In this document: one piece after another, positions 3,521 to 64,000 of the stretch
Numbering within the stretch: the first letter of the stretch is position 1
Layout: each line of letters opens with the position of its first letter
Assembly: GCA_965200155.1 (NCBI GenBank)
Contig: CBDATR010000024.1
Span: forward strand, 320,001 to 384,000
Length of the DNA: 64,000 bases
Direction: 5' to 3'
From: Nitrosopumilaceae archaeon
Lineage (GTDB): Archaea; Thermoproteota; Nitrososphaeria; Nitrososphaerales; Nitrosopumilaceae
Made by a program: the position numbers and the translations under genes
The notes under the pieces: model-generated
What the model was told of the DNA's origin: nothing
The model's database searches: none
What the model saw: only the letters and a program-made list of their open reading frames with translations

Positions 3521-4171
3521 TTAATCCCACTTGGACCAAGCTGCCATCCATCTGTACGTCCATGTATTCAGTTTACAGCCCAGCGCAGCCATGGTTACAG
3601 ATAATACTGCACCAGCTCCTGCACCAAGCGCTACCGGACTATTGTAGAACTTTCCTACCTGCGGTTCAATGGGCGTCATATATGGAGGTAATGTAGGTCT
3701 CGGATACTTGAATGCTGTTTCAAGCGGGTCCGCCACTGTAATCAAGTTCACCATGTTGAACAAAGGCAGGGACATTCCTACCAAAACACCGCCGAATAGT
3801 ATCAAGCTATGTTTGTTCTTTTTGGTGGCCCAGTATACCAAGTCGAGTAACATACCCGACGGTAGCCAGACTGGCGTCACTATGAAGTCGTATGGATACC
3901 CCAGTGCAAACCATGCACCTTTTGCTACCCACGTATAGACTGTCAGGATGAGACAATAATACGTAGCAGTTCCCGGTACCCCAGTAAACGTCAAGTAATA
4001 CGTTGCACCTACTACAAGCATTAGTGTTTGAGATATTGAGAAGATTACGTAAGATGTCCATGCCCAATCTGTGTAGAAGATATAGTCACCAGCATTGATT
4101 GTCAAAAGTGTAGAGTTTACAGCAACAACCACTATGAACAAGTAATGGGTACATCGTCTAAGCCATACCAT
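3521..4171 (-). CDS. amoA: Archaeal ammonia monooxygenase subunit A
   Basis: MVWLRRCTHYLFIVVVAVNSTLLTINAGDYIFYTDWAWTS...KLNTWTYRWMAAWSKWD, 216 aa. Confidence 0.99.
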   Translation of the reverse strand: MVWLRRCTHYLFIVVVAVNSTLLTINAGDYIFYTDWAWTSYVIFSISQTLMLVVGATYYLTFTGVPGTATYYCLILTVYTWVAKGAWFALGYPYDFIVTPVWLPSGMLLDLVYWATKKNKHSLILFGGVLVGMSLPLFNMVNLITVADPLETAFKYPRPTLPPYMTPIEPQVGKFYNSPVALGAGAGAVLSVTMAALGCKLNTWTYRWMAAWSKWD

Positions 4172-4189
4172 TGTTCTAAATTGCAATTC

Positions 4190-4556: not shown

Positions 4557-5490
4557 TGTAATGTATGAAAAGTCGGTCCGCTAGTCATTGGTATCTCGCT
4601 CCATCCATTTTGTATCATTTGCTCTAATTGTCTGGGTCGCCTTTTTATTCCTGGAGTGGTGTTTCACCGTTATCTATATCCAGTGAGAAGTGCAATCTTC
4701 TCTCATTGTAGTAGTCGATATAATCCCGGAGACTGTCATAATGCCATATCACATCCTCAATCATTCCATGGAAGCGCTCCAGTTTGCCATTTGTCTGCGG
4801 GTGGTATGGCCTGGAATTGATTAGTATGATGTCTTGATCCAGCAGTTCTTCCTAGAATAGCGTGTGTTTCCAGTTCTTTTTGCCCTTTTATTGTCCTGCG
4901 AGACACGCGCCGTTATCCAAGATGCAGGGGCGCCGAATCGTTTCATTGCCAGTCTCAGTAATAGAACGGTGTTCTCTGAGGTTGCATGCTAGAATAGTGC
5001 CGCTCCGACGATGCACCTAGATGCATCATCTATGAGATTCAGTCCCCTGAAGCGCTCATCTTTCATTACATGCCAGTGCCACATTGCATTGGAATATTTA
5101 CGCTCATAGCGTACCCACTCTGACTTTGCAGGTGATGATCCTGCCGTACCGTTCTTTTTCATTATGCGATATACTGCGCGATATATTGTAATTCTGTCTA
5201 AGCCTCTTTGCAATACGTACTACTCCGGCGGGATCCTTGCCGTATGTTTCAGTTACCATTCGTATCTGGGTGGCGGTGATTGGTATCATGGGCCTGCCCA
5301 TCTTTACTCGAGTCGTTCCCGTCCTCTGGTTCACAATCTTTGTACGTGTCTTGTCTCAGGTCTTGAGCTATTTTGGTGACAGCAACACCTCTTTTGTCTT
5401 GATTCCTCTGTTATTCTCTTTACCATATGGCTTGTGCAATCTGAACTACTGTACGCCGGATCTAAGCGGACTTACTTTTCGTACTATTGA
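4557..5490 (-). mobile_element. IS481-family element with frameshifted transposase
   Basis: WVRYERKYSNAMWH, IDDASR, HPQTNGKLERFH and YYNE motifs; ~27-bp imperfect TIRs; 15-bp direct repeat GCTACCCTCATCTAA at 4542-4556 and 5491-5505. Confidence 0.9.
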
Positions 5491-5539
5491 GCTACCCTCA
5501 TCTAACACAAGCTATATTCTAGTGCATATTTGCTATTGT

Positions 5540-6391
5540 ATGATTATGTGCAGTAGTAGGCCGCGAATATCACCCATAGTCAAATGGGCCGGTGGCAAGG
5601 CAAGACTGGCAGATACGTTGCTTGGAATGCTGCCAGACCGTTTTGATACATATCATGAACCGTTCGTAGGCGGCGGCTCTATGCTGTTTAGGCTTATTCA
5701 GAAACAAACTAGCCTATTGTGTTACGCTTCTGACATGAATCAAGAATTGATCATAACCTACGAATGCGTCAGAGATGATCTGGAACAATTACTGGAACTA
5801 TTGCAGGCCCATAAACGCGCATTCATGGACAATCGGGAAGAGTACTATTATGATGTCCGTGCCCAGAATCCCTCCAATCGTGTGGAGATAGCTGCTAGAC
5901 TCCTATTTCTGAACAAAACCTGCTTTAATGGACTGTATAGGGTGAATGGTAGGGGTCAGTTTAACGTACCAATGGGCAGTTACCAGAATCCGGATATAGT
6001 GCGCGAGAAGAATCTTCGCAAGATGAGCCATTTTCTGAATAGTTGCAACTGCTCCTTTCAGGCTGCGGATTTTGAGACTGCGTTGGATTATGTAGAACCT
6101 GGCAGCTTTGTATATCTTGATCCACCATACCAGCCCATATCCAAGAACAGCTTTACTACGTACACTTACCCAGATTTTCCTTACGATGATCTGTGTAGAC
6201 TTGCTCGCGTATGCTGGAACTTGGATGCCAGTGGTTGCTATGTGATGCTCTCAAACTCTTGCTCGGAGAAAGTAAAACAACTATTCTCCGAAAATCCTTG
6301 GCATACTACATCATTGAAGGTTCATCGTATGATAAATTCTGATGGTTCCAACCGCACTGGGCACTGTGATTTGCTAATACGAAATTATTAG
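5540..6391 (+). CDS. Dam-family (D12 class) DNA N6-adenine methyltransferase, orphan
   Basis: KWAGGK, EPFVGGGS, FNGLYRVN..FNVP and YLDPPY motifs. The upstream part of the tracked ORF (from 5237) is IS sequence. Confidence 0.93.
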   Translation: MIMCSSRPRISPIVKWAGGKARLADTLLGMLPDRFDTYHEPFVGGGSMLFRLIQKQTSLLCYASDMNQELIITYECVRDDLEQLLELLQAHKRAFMDNREEYYYDVRAQNPSNRVEIAARLLFLNKTCFNGLYRVNGRGQFNVPMGSYQNPDIVREKNLRKMSHFLNSCNCSFQAADFETALDYVEPGSFVYLDPPYQPISKNSFTTYTYPDFPYDDLCRLARVCWNLDASGCYVMLSNSCSEKVKQLFSENPWHTTSLKVHRMINSDGSNRTGHCDLLIRNY

Positions 6392-6706: not shown

Positions 6707-6815
6707 GGTGTATAACAGTCACGCAACGGCGGTGTTCTTTACTGGCCACCAAGTCACTGGATGCCATAAGGGAGATGCGGTGTATAACAGTCACGCAACG
6801 GCGGTGTTCTTTACT
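6707..6815. repeat. Exact 37-bp direct repeat x2 separated by a 35-bp unique insert (CRISPR-like mini-array)
   Basis: GGTGTATAACAGTCACGCAACGGCGGTGTTCTTTACT at 6707-6743 and 6779-6815. Confidence 0.9.
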
Positions 6816-18840: not shown

Positions 18841-20655
18841 ATGTTTGACAGCCTCCGCAAAGCGCTATCGGGAGTTTCAAAGGCATTTGTCGAGAAGGAG
18901 CTTGACGAGGGGACAATCGAGGATGCGCTCTCGGATCTGGAGATGTCATTACTGCAATCTGATGTGGCTTTGGAGGTTGTAGATGAGATCAGCCAAGATC
19001 TCAAGAACCGGTTGAGTGGCACTACGGTACCCAAAAAGAAGATACAAGAATTTGTGCGAGGGGCATTACTGGAATCTGTATCGTCACTGCTGGGGAATGC
19101 CGGGACTCTGGATGTGTTAGAGCGTATACGAATGAAGAATGAGTCAGGTGATCCATATGTCATCCTATTCCTGGGAATAAACGGGACTGGCAAGACTACT
19201 ACATTGGCCAAGATGGTATATTTACTAAAACAGCAAAATTTGACCGCAGTGGTTGCCGCCGCAGATACGTTTAGAGCCGGAGCCATTGAGCAGCTAAAAG
19301 AGCATACGGACAGATTACAGGTAAAGATAATATCACAAAATTACAACTCTGATCCCGCGGCAGTGGCGCGGGATGCTGTTCTTTATGCTAAATCCCATCG
19401 TGTCAACTGTGTCCTGATAGATACAGCAGGCCGCATCCAGACAAACACAAACCTGATGCAACAGATAGAAAAAATAATCAAGGTAGTGGGACCTGATCTT
19501 AGAATATTTGTCGGGGACTCCTTAGCAGGAAACGACGCGTTAAGCCAAGCCATACAGTTTCGTGACTACACTAACTTTGATTGCGTAATCATGACCAAGA
19601 GCGATGCCGATGCCAAAGGTGGAGCGGCTCTGTCTATAGTAAAGATGACATCAAAGCCGATTGTCTTTCTTGGCGTAGGTCAGGAGTATGGAGATCTAGC
19701 CCCATTCAAAAAAGAGGTGTTTTTGGATACACTGTTTGGCGAGGCAGAGGTGGATCCCTCCCTGTTATCTAGAATGCCCGATATGGCTGCCCCACCACCG
19801 GTCATTGAGGAACCAAAAGATGAACCTGCCATTCCGTCCCTATCACAGGAATTATCTCAGGATACCCATGCCCCACCACCGCTCATTGAGGAACCCAAGG
19901 ACATCCCTGATGCAGAATACGAAGAACCCCCGCAGCGAGATCCATTTGAGGGCATTTCTGATGATGACATAAAATCATATTCCGAGATAAACAAGGCTCC
20001 GCCTCCGGAGAGCGACGATGAGGCTCTGGAACTAGCCACGCAAATTAAAAAATGGATAAGTGACGGAAGGCCTTCTGGCAAGCCAGAACCCAAAGACGAA
20101 CCCCCACAGCGAGATCCATTTGAGGGCATTTCTGATGATGACATAAAATCATATTCCGAGATAAACAAGGCTCCGCCTCCGGAGAGCGACGATGAGGCTC
20201 TGGAACTAGCCACGCAAATTAAAAAATGGATAAGTGACGGAAGGCCTTCTGGCAAGCCAGAACCCAAAGACGAACCCCCGCAGCGAGATCCATTTGAGGG
20301 CATTTCTGATGATGACATAAAATCATATTCCGAGATAAACAGGGCTCCGCCTCCGGAGAGCGACGATGAGGCTCTGGAACTAGCCACGCAAATTAAAAAA
20401 TGGATAAGTGACGGAAGGCCTTCTGGCAAGCCAGAACCCAAAGACGAACCCCCGCAGCGAGATCCATTTGAGGGCATTTCTGATGATGACATAAAATCAT
20501 ATTCCGAGATAAACAGGGCTCCGCCTCCGGAGAGCGACGATGAGGCTCTGGAACTAGCCACGCAAATTAAAAAATGGATAAGTGACGGAAGGCCTTCTGG
20601 CAAGCCAGAACACAAGAAGAAAAAACGCGGATTGTTTGGGTTCTTCAGAAAATGA
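18841..20655 (+). CDS. ftsY: SRP receptor FtsY with repeat-expanded C-terminus
   Basis: GINGTGKTTT, DTFRAGA, DTAGR and TKSD motifs. Confidence 0.96.
   Translation: MFDSLRKALSGVSKAFVEKELDEGTIEDALSDLEMSLLQSDVALEVVDEISQDLKNRLSGTTVPKKKIQEFVRGALLESVSSLLGNAGTLDVLERIRMKNESGDPYVILFLGINGTGKTTTLAKMVYLLKQQNLTAVVAAADTFRAGAIEQLKEHTDRLQVKIISQNYNSDPAAVARDAVLYAKSHRVNCVLIDTAGRIQTNTNLMQQIEKIIKVVGPDLRIFVGDSLAGNDALSQAIQFRDYTNFDCVIMTKSDADAKGGAALSIVKMTSKPIVFLGVGQEYGDLAPFKKEVFLDTLFGEAEVDPSLLSRMPDMAAPPPVIEEPKDEPAIPSLSQELSQDTHAPPPLIEEPKDIPDAEYEEPPQRDPFEGISDDDIKSYSEINKAPPPESDDEALELATQIKKWISDGRPSGKPEPKDEPPQRDPFEGISDDDIKSYSEINKAPPPESDDEALELATQIKKWISDGRPSGKPEPKDEPPQRDPFEGISDDDIKSYSEINRAPPPESDDEALELATQIKKWISDGRPSGKPEPKDEPPQRDPFEGISDDDIKSYSEINRAPPPESDDEALELATQIKKWISDGRPSGKPEHKKKKRGLFGFFRK
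19924..20610 (+). repeat. Four near-identical 174-bp (58-aa) tandem repeats inside ftsY
   Basis: Units start at 19924, 20098, 20272 and 20446. Confidence 0.97.
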
Positions 20656-29593: not shown

Positions 29594-29827
29594 ACACTGT
29601 TGAATATCAGTGCTGACTAATTAACTGATTCGCTAGATTTTTGGGAATTATATATGAGTTACATTATTCATGGGAACCGGTTACTGGAATGAGGTGCATA
29701 GAATCATCACTCCCAATAATGACACTGATATACAACAAGTTTGGTGTGCAGACTTGTGTGTTCTTTAGCCGTTCTCACACACAAAGTGATTCTGTGCATA
29801 AGATCTAATATACTGCCCAAGAATATT

Positions 29828-30709
29828 ATGATGTTGAAATCTTTGTTATTCAATAAAAGGCCACAGGTATTCGAGGTCTCCAACGGCAGGAATCCTTATC
29901 ATCTTATACCATACATAGGCAACAAGTCTGGTTTTTGCCATATCTTTGATGTACTGATACCAGATTCTATTAGAAACCACCGGATATATGATATCTTTGG
30001 TGGTGGTGGCTCATTCTCCATATACTGCTCATATCGCTTTGGTTCAAAAAATGTCACATACAACGATAACAATCCAGTCATAGCCAATTTCATACGATGT
30101 GTAAGGGATGACCCTTCCGGGTTGCACCGGCAGTATCTCATGCATAAACAAAAATCAGGCAATGAATACTATCTTGATACACGAGACAAATCTCTAGACG
30201 TCGGTCTTGTGGGCGCTGGCCGGTTCCTGTATCTGGCCAAGAATGCATTCTCAGGTAAGATAAGGTTCAACCGTTCCAACAAGTTCAACACACCCATGAG
30301 AAAGGACAGTCGGTGCCCGGATATGGATCTTGAGCACCTACGACGAACCAGCGATATAATAAAGGACATGACAATTACGAACGAATCCTACGAGTTCTAT
30401 GATGATACACGGGAATCATTTGTGTACCTTGATCCACCATACATGAATAATACAAACAACCATTACAACGGGGTGCCGGAGACGGACAAGTTTATAGAAT
30501 TTGTGAAGAAGATAGAATGGGATAATTATATTATGATTTCAGAGCAGAATGATCCGTCTGCCTTGAAACTGTCTGATGATTTCAGAGTCTATCCCATACT
30601 GCTGAAACGATCACTACAATATAATACACAAAATAGCAGCCAAGAGATCATAGCGATAAACTACATTTCGACACTGTTGGAATCTACTGATGGCAAGCAT
30701 AGCCATTAG
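29828..30709 (+). CDS. D12-class DNA N6-adenine methyltransferase
   Basis: PYIGNK, DIFGGGGS, FNTP and YLDPPY motifs. Confidence 0.9.
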   Translation: MMLKSLLFNKRPQVFEVSNGRNPYHLIPYIGNKSGFCHIFDVLIPDSIRNHRIYDIFGGGGSFSIYCSYRFGSKNVTYNDNNPVIANFIRCVRDDPSGLHRQYLMHKQKSGNEYYLDTRDKSLDVGLVGAGRFLYLAKNAFSGKIRFNRSNKFNTPMRKDSRCPDMDLEHLRRTSDIIKDMTITNESYEFYDDTRESFVYLDPPYMNNTNNHYNGVPETDKFIEFVKKIEWDNYIMISEQNDPSALKLSDDFRVYPILLKRSLQYNTQNSSQEIIAINYISTLLESTDGKHSH

Positions 30710-31452
30710 TGGATTTCAAAACGAGGACTGGGTAGTGTCAGAATTCAACAACTACCTTTGTAGCTATTGGGCAAAGCGTTGGCTAAAAACCATGGGATAC
30801 AATAAGATCGAACATCTATGCTCACAAACAACCAGAAAAATGGGTTATTTCAACAAGGCAGATGTCTTGGTTCTAGGTAGAATGGATCTCGGTTAAAAAA
30901 TTCTCGATTAGTTTCAACCAGATTGATAAGAAGTGGGTTGATGCATATGCGAAACAGTGGAACATGTCACAAGAAGTTAAAAATATTTTCAAAAGATATT
31001 GTGGGGAAGTAGGGCATAGGCCAAGAGACTTGCTTAATGAACGTCAGTTGAGAGAAATCTCTGACAAGAGGCGTTTTAAAATGAATGAATTGTCTGAGGC
31101 ATATCAGGAACAAATGTTAAATTTTTTAAACAAGAACCGGAAGAAGATTGTTAAGGATGTTATAAGTGGAAGCGGAAAGGCATCGGCCAAATGGATGCTT
31201 TTGGTAGAGGAAAAAGATGGTAGTCCGCAAAGATCTGTACTTTTACCGATTAAGATGGTTATAGAGCATTGCAACGGTAGAGCATCGATCACGGAACGAG
31301 GAAATTTAAAACTAGGTGAGATTACCATACAGAGGAAGGGTGGAGATGCAGGTAAGGATACATCTCAGATGCTGCAATTTAAATTCTCACCTAGAAGACT
31401 TTTCGATATTCAGGGTATAGATGTTATTGAGCGATGTAAGAAAATTCCGTGA
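30690..31452 (+). pseudogene. HinP1I-like type II restriction endonuclease, frameshifted near 30885
   Basis: GFQNE, KADV, then in a shifted frame ISVKK..FNQIDKKW...ITIQRKGGDAGKDTSQMLQFKFSP. Confidence 0.75.
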
Positions 31453-31731
31453 GATAAGCGCGGCATTACGGAGAATATATGCTAAAGTCACAGAATACGA
31501 GCGCGAGTAGAGAATCGCATGATTTTTTGGTGGTTTTTCAATAGAACCGGTTATAGGAAAGATTACTAGACCTTATGCGCATGATTGACATCAGGTCGCT
31601 CCAAATTGGGATTATGGCACATGAGGGACTATTGGAATGATAGTCCTAACAAGTAACTTAACTACATAATTCCCAGATTTTTTCCCGGTATTTCAGGTAA
31701 TACTCTTGCCCATAGCATCATTAACCATAGG

Positions 31732-31807
31732 TGCTCCCGCCGGGATTTGAACCCGGGATCACTGCCTTGAGAGGGCAGTATGCTTAACCGGACTACACCA
31801 CAGGAGC
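31732..31807 (-). tRNA. tRNA-Glu(CTC)
   Basis: GCTCCTG...CTGCC CT CTC AA GGCAG...CCGGGTTCAAATCCCGG CGGGAGCA. Confidence 0.95.
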
Positions 31808-32097: not shown

Positions 32098-32298
32098 CTT
32101 GGGCGGACCTACACTACTAATGCATCAGGCATTATCCAGACCCACAACATAGCTGCCACGCACCTTGACTTGGGCGGACCTACACTACTAATGCATCAGG
32201 CATTACTGTTAAGCCCATACGGCCAAGAAATGACCACACTTGAAATGATATCACGTATGGGAATGCATCAGGCATTACTGTTAAGCCCATACGGCCAA
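32098..32298. repeat. Two overlapping exact 37-bp duplications, each enclosing a unique 34- or 35-bp insert
   Basis: Repeat X at 32098-32134 and 32169-32205; repeat Y at 32190-32226 and 32262-32298. Confidence 0.92.
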
Positions 32299-32341
32299 TA
32301 TGCGAGAAGCATTATACGCTAAAGGTACATCATTTCATGCC

Positions 32342-33217
32342 ATGGATCTGCCGCAACTATTGGAGGAACATGTGCCAGGATTGTCTCCGGCCGGTCTTGT
32401 CGGTTGTAGGTCTATGGGCAACTTCTCAACATCTTGCATACATGATATTGTGGTATTCGATGATCTGAAGCACCTGCCTCAAATTATCACACACAATGAC
32501 GGGAAAGTAATGTTGTGTCACGGTTCCCTGTCTGATGGGCGTCCACTGGTATTGGCAGGTTATCTTGGCATGTCTATAATCCGAGACGATACAATGATCT
32601 TGGCGTCATTTCTTCGAAACATAAAGACAAACCATGAAAAGCTATTCCGGGATTGCGCCCGGATATATCTTGCCAATGCAATGTTATGTACACACAAGTC
32701 ATCGATTGCAGTTGGTGACGCGGTATCCTGCTGGCAAAAATGCGCCACCTTATACTTGGGCGATGCGGTCTTGGCACTCCATTCGTTTGCCCCTTCATCA
32801 CATGCACTGAGCATGTTGAGGAGCATAACTGGCGGTACAGAATATTCGGCTATACCACTGGTGGTGGAAACATTGGAGGCGAAACGGGCGTCTCCTACAC
32901 TATTGCACAGGATGATGCTTTCAACCCAACGACTGGCTGAGGTGGCTGGTACAATATCTCCTTATGTAATAAGGCACAAGGCGCAGGCATTGATAGATGA
33001 CTCTCGCCTCGCGGATTGCTATTGGTATTTGTGTCATACCAGTCGTGATTGCTGGATACAAGTGGGAGGTACTGCCATTACAGAACGCGCGATAAGTATT
33101 GCAATTGATATCAACCGTGACATTACAAATGTCCGGAACAACGCCGCGCGTATACAGGAAGCGACCGATAAGTTGCTGGTACAAATTGCCGAAGATGCGC
33201 TTGAAATGAACAATTAA
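32342..33217 (+). CDS. Conserved thaumarchaeal hypothetical protein (degenerate nucleotidyltransferase-like N-terminus)
   Basis: GLVGCRS...HDIVVFD followed by a helical domain. Confidence 0.6.
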   Translation: MDLPQLLEEHVPGLSPAGLVGCRSMGNFSTSCIHDIVVFDDLKHLPQIITHNDGKVMLCHGSLSDGRPLVLAGYLGMSIIRDDTMILASFLRNIKTNHEKLFRDCARIYLANAMLCTHKSSIAVGDAVSCWQKCATLYLGDAVLALHSFAPSSHALSMLRSITGGTEYSAIPLVVETLEAKRASPTLLHRMMLSTQRLAEVAGTISPYVIRHKAQALIDDSRLADCYWYLCHTSRDCWIQVGGTAITERAISIAIDINRDITNVRNNAARIQEATDKLLVQIAEDALEMNN

Positions 33218-62916: not shown

Positions 62917-63164
62917 GCTTGAAGTGGTATGAATGGTTCCTGCTCCCTCTCAATCTCCTCTACGGTATCGTGGCTGCGTATGGTCACCAGCTTGAAGTGA
63001 CATGAATGGTTCCTGCTCCCTCTCAATCTCCTCTACGGTATCGTGGCTGCGTATGGTCACCAGCTTGAAGTGACATGAATGGTTCCTGCTCCCTCTCAAT
63101 CTCCTCTACGGTATCGTGGCTGCGTATGGTCACCAGCTTGAAGTGACATGAATGGTTCCTGCTC
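62917..63164. repeat. 73-bp tandem repeat x3.4, truncated by IS481
   Basis: Units start at 62917, 62990, 63063 and 63136. Confidence 0.93.
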
Positions 63165-64000
63165 TCAATAGTACGAAAAGTAAGTCCGCTTAGGATCCGG
63201 CGTACAGTAGTTCAGATTGCACAAGCCATATGGTAAAGAGAATAACAGAGGAATCACGACAAAAGAGGCGTTGCCGCCACCAAAATAGCTCAAGACCTGA
63301 AACAAGACACGTACGAAGATTGTGAACCAGAGAACGGGAACGACTCGAGTAAAGAGGGGCAGGCCCATGATACCAATCACCGCCACCCAGATACGAATGG
63401 TGACTGAAGCATATCACAAGGATCCCGCCGGAGTAGTACGTATTGCAAAGAGACTTAGACAGAATTACAATATATCGCGCAGTATATCGCATAATTAAAA
63501 AGAACGGTACGGCAGGATCATCACCTGCAAAGTCAGAGTGGGTACGCTATGAGCGTAAATATTCCAATGCAATGTGGCACTGGCATGTCATGAAAGATGA
63601 GCGCTTCAGGGGACTGAATCTCATAGATGATGCATCCAGGTGTATAGTCGGAGCGGCACTATTTTAGCATGCAACCTCAGAGAACGCCACTCTATTACTG
63701 AGATTGGCTATAGAACGATTCGGCGCCCCTGCATCTCGGATAACGGCGCGTGTTTCGTAGGACAATAAAAGGGCAAGAAAAGCTGGAAACCCACTATTCT
63801 AGGAAGAACTGCTGAATCAAGACATCATACTAATCAATTCCAGGTCATACCATCCACAGACAAATGGCAAACTGGAGCGCTTCCATGGAATGATTGAGGA
63901 CGAGATATGGCATTATGACAGTCTCCGGGATTATGTTGACTACTACAATGAGAGAAGGTTGTACTTCTCACTGGATATAGATAACGGCGAAACATCGCTT
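63165..64000 (+). mobile_element. IS481-family element (second copy, decayed, runs off the right edge)
   Basis: Close paralogue of 4557-5490 in the opposite orientation; starts TCAATAGTACGAAAAG. Confidence 0.9.

Follow-up and report, generated by a model that had tools for sequence, protein, structure and literature searches.

Off-target spacer integrations, probably by a type I-G CRISPR adaptation module, in the genome of a sponge-associated archaeon

Just upstream of an open reading frame in an archaeal genome, two different 37-nt sequences are each present twice, around inserts of 34 and 35 nt, and the two duplications overlap. What kind of machinery duplicates a fixed length of DNA around a short insert, does so twice in shifted registers at one place, and where do the inserts come from? 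The window that was analysed is a stretch of 64,000 nucleotides (C24:320001-384000) of a 2.38-Mb, 51-contig assembly (46.6% G+C; 87.6% complete). It encodes the A subunit of an archaeal ammonia monooxygenase (AmoA), and the public sequencing runs that contain this stretch carry the label sponge metagenome; the genome is therefore taken to be that of a sponge-associated ammonia-oxidising archaeon.

The anatomy of the site is listed in the table together with the other features whose coordinates matter here. The original prediction, made from the DNA letters, described a repeat X on both sides of a 34-bp insert and a repeat Y on both sides of a 35-bp insert, and its coordinates and letters agree with the sequence. 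X and Y are two different sequences with two copies each, and all four copies are exact; a chance origin of two exact 37-mers is impossible. The last 16 nt of the second X are the start of the first Y, as had been noted, and the proposed single 58-bp ancestral sequence still stands, contiguous and undisturbed, at 32169-32226. Two independent insertion events, each duplicating a fixed length of target, were proposed on these grounds, and both duplications are indeed 37 nt long. X and Y resemble the 36-nt CRISPR repeat of this genome at a few end positions at most, and they lack what marks a canonical array, that is, several copies of a cas-associated repeat together with a leader. The neighbours, a tRNA gene on the left and an open reading frame (ORF) without a Pfam family on the right, serve as context only.

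Table. Coordinates of the double-insertion site, its neighbours and related features (window positions, unless a contig is named)
Feature	Position	Strand	Remarks
X copy 1	32098..32134	.	37-nt target duplication of event 1; same letters as 32169-32205
Insert 1	32135..32168	.	34 nt; self-derived spacer
X copy 2	32169..32205	.	identical to X copy 1; spacing 71
Y copy 1	32190..32226	.	37-nt target duplication of event 2; same letters as 32262-32298
Insert 2	32227..32261	.	35 nt; source not found
Y copy 2	32262..32298	.	identical to Y copy 1; spacing 72
tRNA-Glu(CTC)	31730..31807	-	left neighbour of the site; context only
305-codon ORF	32300..33217	+	start 2 nt after Y copy 2; context only
Stray event	6707..6815	.	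37-nt duplication (6707-6743, 6779-6815) around 35-nt insert; = C24:326707
Tandem unit	62917..63164	.	73-nt unit x3.4; period 73, 98% matches
AmoA	3521-4186	-	archaeal ammonia monooxygenase subunit A; PF12942, E=1.7e-115
IS66-borne units	C24:500844-501097, C10:210130-210310, C13:25588-25762, C31:2830-3010 and others		2-4 repeats
Candidate events in congener G006	C1 of G006: 867871, 983328, 1037483, 1129534		36-38 nt duplications, period 72

Short pieces of other loci spliced between repeated k-mers by an assembler or a sequencer might look like this, and the assembly, in 51 contigs and 87.6% complete, does hold a second copy of insert 1. The original prediction had itself named misassembly as one outcome that would undo it. 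Assembled pieces from two runs of two studies run through every junction at flank-like depth (55-57 and 97-100 through insert 1, 65 and 91 at the junction of X copy 2 with Y copy 1, 76 and 91 through insert 2, compared with 72-74 and 87-90 in the flanks), with the qualification that one of these runs may be the genome's own assembly sample and that the support is accordingly not fully independent. The X and Y repeat pieces are about twice as deep, at 119-151 and 181-197. No alternative letters or joints appear at the site in the pieces of the two runs, and the low-depth raw reads of a third study show neither joints nor other letters over the region. Misassembly of this site is unlikely. An artefact would, moreover, not yield the period distribution of a CRISPR array 65 times over, nor a target motif (both described below), and as an explanation of these structures it has next to no chance of being right.

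The empty 58-bp site and single-insert intermediates, whose search had been suggested, did not turn up in relatives, metagenome contigs or reads. In 40 relatives and in the genome itself, a 1,201-nt query aligned only in its tRNA part and in parts of the downstream gene; among members of the same genus, nothing around the site aligns well but the tRNA-Glu(CTC) gene, the 305-codon ORF aligning in parts. Divergence from the relatives (one congener has 61% G+C) is too great in the intergenic DNA for an empty site to be recovered there. In metagenome_contigs, a word of 33 nt that covers the X/Y overlap had 0 hits, and four read sets over the site contain neither joints nor left-out letters, nor do they hold an empty allele; at the raw-read depth of 0-7 a rare empty allele could escape, and contig sets gain no new words from one. 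The order of the two events is not readable from the sequence.

A scan for regularly spaced repeats finds one large CRISPR array in this genome, on contig C9. It has 289 repeats of 36 nt, of which 287 are identical and the last is degenerate, and 288 spacers, mostly of 37 nt (101), 36 nt (85) and 38 nt (63), with fewer of 35 nt (16) and 39 nt (15). On the upstream side of the array lie the genes for a Cas4-Cas1 fusion (549 aa; PF01930 and PF01867) and, after it, Cas2, both with open reading frames; on the far side lie genes for Cas3 and for members of the GSU0054 and GSU0053 families. This set of genes we take to be that of a type I-G system (formerly I-U), judging by the Pfam families and by the usual classification. 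The Cas4-Cas1 fusion is the sole Cas1 of the genome. The first 20 kb of the array locus (C9:70901-90900) have no match among GenBank phages that would yield the adjacent motif of the true spacers.

How many structures like X and Y are there? All counts of stray events given here refer to the genome without its main C9 array. Exact direct repeats of 35-40 nt number 2, 19, 14, 7 and 5 at spacings of 71, 72, 73, 74 and 75 (47 in total), compared with 0-1 at nearly each of the other spacings from 60 to 90; the exception, 8 exact repeats at a spacing of 82, is another repeat family. When up to 3 mismatches per 36 nt are allowed, 72 hits fall at spacings 71-75, against 0-10 at every other spacing from 45 to 129. 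From 74 rows at spacings 70-76, seven tandem or low-complexity rows were dropped (on C2, at C10:347832, on C29, two on C32 and two on C40); the remaining 67 rows were used for comparing inserts, and two more, copies of the same element event, were dropped, which leaves 65 events.

Each stray event consists of a 36-37 bp duplication around a unique insert of 33-40 bp. The duplicated length, with boundaries that are ambiguous by 1-2 nt where the ends of an insert match the flanks, is 36 nt in 22 and 37 nt in 29 of the 65 events. Duplications of 37 nt are thus commoner than those of the repeat length, 36 nt, and chance extension accounts for only part of the excess. That a molecular ruler sets the length, as was proposed from X and Y alone, holds across the genome. 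Periods of 71, 72, 73, 74 and 75 are found in 4, 28, 18, 9 and 6 stray events and 16, 85, 101, 63 and 15 times in the array, two distributions that do not differ (chi-square 6.89, 4 df, p=0.14). The two copies of the duplication are identical in 48 of the 65 events, and there are 24 mismatches in 2,389 compared nucleotides overall; most stray events are therefore young.

Two of these structures lie elsewhere in the window. The insert of the event at 6707..6815 is identical in 35 of 35 positions to C10:205388-205422. The tandem repeat at 62917..63164 is more complicated: of its 73-nt unit, approximately 33 nt are native flank (with a paralogue at C34:62123-62155) and approximately 40 nt match C10:240994-241033 at 97.5%, so that, from its sequence, it reads as a single stray repeat-plus-spacer unit that was later amplified in tandem. 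It abuts a repeat element with more than 100 copies in the genome. This element, of about 236 nt or more, occupies 63165-63400 of the window and more than 100 other places at 82-99% identity, and three stray integrations lie inside other copies of it (C24:104887, C24:207551 and C5:82614). Three further observations concern the window itself. A D12-class adenine methyltransferase gene and a gene for an R.HinP1I-like endonuclease (29741-31452) lie just left of the tRNA gene, a second D12 methyltransferase gene (5237-6391) lies left of the stray event at 6707, and 19924-20615 holds a tandem repeat of 4.0 copies, 99% identical, whose unit of 174 nt corresponds to 58 codons.

The inserts speak to the question of which enzyme is involved. 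This genome is rich in mobile DNA (a family of IS66 transposons with dozens of copies, besides the element with more than 100), and one might suppose that duplications of 36-37 bp around a footprint of about 35 bp are left by some unrelated integrase or mobile element, be it a transposase or a casposase-like enzyme. What stands between the duplications is, however, not a conserved element with defined ends. The inserts are mutually unrelated (the 7 pairs that are alike among the 67 are all copies of the same elements), and no base is conserved over their first and last 8 positions, that is, they have neither common termini nor similarity to one another. They include copies of ordinary genes from elsewhere in the genome, the length of insert plus duplication tracks the period distribution of the array, the genome holds a single Cas1 homologue, and the target motif, as set out below, is that of the CRISPR repeat ends. 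An unrelated mobile element is, accordingly, a very improbable source of these structures.

Of the 67 inserts, 36 match another place in the genome. Once 6 element copies and one match to an array spacer are set aside, 29 distant protospacers remain; at least 29 of the 65 stray inserts thus have a distant genomic source, and 18 match it perfectly over their full length. Insert 1 of the double site is an example. It is identical in 34 of 34 positions to C10:383947-383980, on the opposite strand, with the identity continuing for 2 nt on one side, and the ORF that contains its source (L023:726-1661) has aspartate/ornithine carbamoyltransferase domains; reads from that locus appear at the double site as loose ends at 32133 and 32168. 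Insert 2 is different: it has no match elsewhere in the 87.6%-complete genome, none was reported in 40 relatives, and viral_contigs contain no exact copy of its 26-nt core. The suggestion that the two inserts be traced to host or viral sequences thus bore fruit for the first, which matches a host gene, and not for the second, which matched neither.

The true array presents another picture. Only 1 of its 288 spacers matches the genome outside the array, and the target of that one is not a host gene: it is the stray insert at C25:4760. This spacer, number 58 (C9:~75221-75257), and the stray insert (C25:4797-4831) overlap by 26-28 nt on opposite strands, and both therefore come from the same DNA source, which was presumably foreign. 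Fragments of the cell's own DNA would, then, be captured often and be lethal, or be purged, when they enter the true array, and would be harmless at stray sites, which are presumably not processed into guides.

A protospacer-adjacent signal in the stray inserts is faint. TTN, the motif to be expected of this subtype, stands beside protospacers in 9 of 58 flanks, compared with 4.2 expected (p=0.02), and on neither side in 20 of 29; a search for an adjacent motif likewise gives a weak enrichment of TTN or of T at position -2. The orientation of the inserts, judged by the side on which TTN stands, bears no relation to the stronger half-site of the target (4 concordant, 5 opposite). With regard to the genomic sources, contig C10 supplies 15 of the 29 traceable self-derived inserts while making up 23% of the genome (p=6e-4), from positions spread over 28-479 kb. 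This excess could reflect replication, copy number or a separate replicon.

Length is not the only thing that is recognised. The original prediction had read the constant length and shifting register as a ruler at work "rather than sequence recognition", and this part of it does not stand. When the targets are collapsed to 50 families, their 100 half-sites carry a weak but highly significant motif (chi-square p-values of 6.5e-4 to 4e-7 at its positions), with T at position 3 in 48, G or T at 4 in 70, C at 5 in 39, G or C at 11 in 75 and G or C at 12 in 67 of the 100. The true repeat has T3, T4, C5 and G/C at 11-12 at both of its ends; apart from these few end positions the stray repeats are unrelated to it in sequence. 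A weight matrix was made from 49 families, with the X/Y site left out and the true repeat not used, and was compared with approximately 478,000 background positions. With this matrix of stray sites, the true leader-repeat junction reaches 5.78 bits and ranks in the top 0.01% of the background. The left half-site of Y, at 6.22 bits, surpasses both that junction and every background position sampled; that of X scores 1.63 bits (top 7.4%). The right half-sites are unremarkable, at 25% (Y) and 96% (X) of the background, that of X being poor. Across all events the median better half-site is in the top 2.8% and the median worse one at 23.5%, figures that are optimistic in that the events were themselves in the matrix.

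It seems, then, that the enzyme needs one good mimic of a repeat end and measures 36-37 bp from there. Two such mimics lie 21 bp apart at the X/Y site, and this accounts for the register shift of 21 bp between X and Y, which is not that of a free-running ruler but that of two separate half-sites. Because the motif is symmetric, its two orientations were not told apart by an EM search.

Putting these observations together, the X and Y events are very probably off-target (ectopic) spacer integrations by the cell's own type I-G Cas4-Cas1 fusion and Cas2. The features expected of such neo-CRISPR units are present: duplications of repeat length, a period that matches that of the array, an intact Cas1-Cas2 pair encoded in the genome, inserts that are mutually unrelated and copied from elsewhere, and targets that resemble repeat borders. 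It is by this signature that the events are linked to Cas4/1-Cas2, whose catalysis of them is putative. The integrase, loaded with spacer-sized DNA, would bind a mimic of one end of a CRISPR repeat and join one 3' end of the spacer there; the other 3' end would be joined on the opposite strand 36-37 bp away, the geometry of the enzyme serving as the ruler, and repair of the gaps would duplicate the 36-37 bp between the joints. This link between the ruler and the resident CRISPR adaptation enzyme is one that the original prediction had not drawn. At the X/Y site two half-site mimics, 21 bp apart, would have allowed two separate integrations with overlapping targets, and insert 1 would have been captured from the cell's own carbamoyltransferase gene.

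Where do the stray events lie? Five are found within 10 kb upstream of the array, compared with 0.27 expected (p=1e-5). Two of the five form a unit of three repeats and two inserts (C9:70400-70590) that sits exactly where cas4/1 ends in its stop codon and cas2 begins; the two genes, still open, now lie 148 nt further apart owing to this unit, whose inserts match C10:291117-291150 and C24:421310-421346. Two other stray integrations on contig C9, at 64791 and 65224 (L001:12791-13330), lie in or beside a short ORF that adjoins a fragment of a D12 methyltransferase gene and matches the profile of the HaeIII restriction endonuclease family in part, over positions 39-127 of 298; they may have broken a restriction gene. 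The double site had been called a local hotspot upstream of a gene. Events do cluster locally; that a position upstream of a gene matters finds no evidence here.

A second place of concentration is a transposon. A 37-mer in the IS66-family transposase gene has been the target of at least 7 events. It occurs 75 times in the genome, 36 of the occurrences (by hand count) being single copies with constant flanks, that is, empty sites; other copies have 2-4 repeats with different inserts, some of them common to several copies of the transposon. One older insert is common to many IS66 copies, and one copy holds the same insert twice. The IS66-borne unit appears to have spread by transposition. The shared older insert is always on one side, with too few independent cases for a test of polar growth. 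Sites in the genome that have grown to 3-4 repeats include C9:70400-70590, C24:237593-237780 and C24:500844-501097.

Reading frames are not spared. When each event is removed in silico, open frames of at least 120 codons are found at 26 of the 65 sites; 12 of these frames run on through the event, and among the frames broken by stray events are several long ones (326-523 codons). Selection for in-frame insertion is not discernible: periods are divisible by 3 in 14 of 26 coding and in 7 of 12 non-coding events. The duplicated stretch of one ORF that carries an in-frame event is absent from two of its orthologues, in a region that is too diverged to show a clean gap of 24 residues.

Might the stray units be working neo-CRISPR arrays, transcribed and processed, whose inserts guide defence or regulate the cell's own genes? 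It has been proposed in the literature that off-target events can seed new arrays, and some sites do have 3-4 repeats. X and Y hold just two copies each, however, perfectly self-matching inserts would be self-targeting, and stray repeats, being unlike the true repeat, would hardly be recognised by a repeat-specific processing enzyme. We regard working arrays as an improbable reading of these units. Their products are most likely inert scars of off-target integration. The cell would tolerate them because a stray "repeat" is no true repeat, so that a self-matching insert presumably never becomes a guide RNA.

A wider scenario is also conceivable, and we think it rather unlikely: that the repeat-like unit seeded in IS66 spread with the transposon and kept gaining spacers (up to 4 repeats), that the type I-G effector uses transcripts of some such neo-arrays, and that the adaptation enzyme is a major insertional mutagen in the erosion of a symbiont genome.

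The machinery, at least, is not confined to this organism. Among 60 relatives searched, homologous Cas4-Cas1 fusions with 58-66% identity are found in four members of the same genus (G001, G005, G006 and G008), and the fusion is also present in G023 and G041, which belong to other genera of the family; G009, of the same genus, has broken Cas4-Cas1 pieces. G006, with a related type I-G array and a related repeat, has 4 candidate stray events (see the table) in 800 kb of its 2.74 Mb, one of which adjoins its cas4/1 gene. The density of candidates is about 5 per Mb in G006, compared with 27 per Mb in the genome studied here.

Off-target integration has precedents. In Escherichia coli, overproduced type I-E Cas1-Cas2 is reported to yield rare off-target events, for which the term "neo-CRISPR" was introduced (Nivala, Shipman & Church 2018, Nat Microbiol); according to a citing preprint, that work offers circumstantial evidence only in two other species. 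The likeness to our events is close: a spacer outside the array, a target duplication of repeat length, and the possibility of repetition at one site. The events described here differ in being natural and fixed, in numbering about 65 in one archaeal genome, in going with a type I-G Cas4-Cas1 fusion, in having inserts that are largely self-derived and, at the X/Y site, in a second event shifted by 21 bp. Cas1-Cas2 of Pyrococcus furiosus integrates in vitro at repeat-like non-CRISPR sites of plasmids with a 30-bp ruler (PMC6698737). There, too, paired joints lie one repeat length apart and the off-target sites have some bases, conserved by position, in common with the repeat borders, whereas here the record is genomic, the ruler is 36-37 bp, and there is typically one good and one poor half-site.

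For isolated or orphan arrays, off-target acquisition is a proposed origin (Shmakov et al. 2020, CRISPR J), the same as is proposed here for repeat-spacer units away from cas genes. CRISPR finders detect those arrays, whereas most of our units, with two copies each, would not count as arrays. TTN-flanked spacers, mainly from non-chromosomal DNA, are selected by a type I-U Cas4-Cas1 fusion (Almendros et al. 2019, PMC6547450). The adaptation module there is built like the one here, of Cas2 and a fusion of Cas4 and Cas1; in contrast, the stray inserts of this genome are largely chromosomal and weakly enriched for TTN. What is called ectopic spacer acquisition in Streptococcus thermophilus, the addition of a spacer away from the leader-proximal repeat (PMC7999890), is another matter: the new spacer enters a true repeat inside the array, whereas the targets here are non-CRISPR DNA. 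In the literature, as judged by titles and the openings of abstracts, no account turned up of stray integrations that occur naturally in large numbers within a single genome, or in archaea of sponges. The mechanism is thus known from experiments, and its natural scale appears to be unreported.

Off-target integration was so far known from overproduced enzymes and from work in vitro, and the evidence from nature is described in a citing preprint as circumstantial. The approximately 65 fixed natural events of this genome, from one type I-G system, constitute a rare archive, made by nature, of CRISPR memory formation that missed its target. While at least 29 of the 65 stray inserts are self-derived, a single one of the 288 array spacers matches the genome outside the array, and what it matches is an ectopic insert. 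We see in this direct evidence that self spacers are often taken up and later lost from real arrays, presumably by selection. The events also provide a natural logo of the integrase target, one good half-site and a ruler of 36-37 bp, and they show a cost to the genome in the several long reading frames that have been interrupted. The arrays that grow inside a transposon are, finally, candidates for the origin of new CRISPR arrays.
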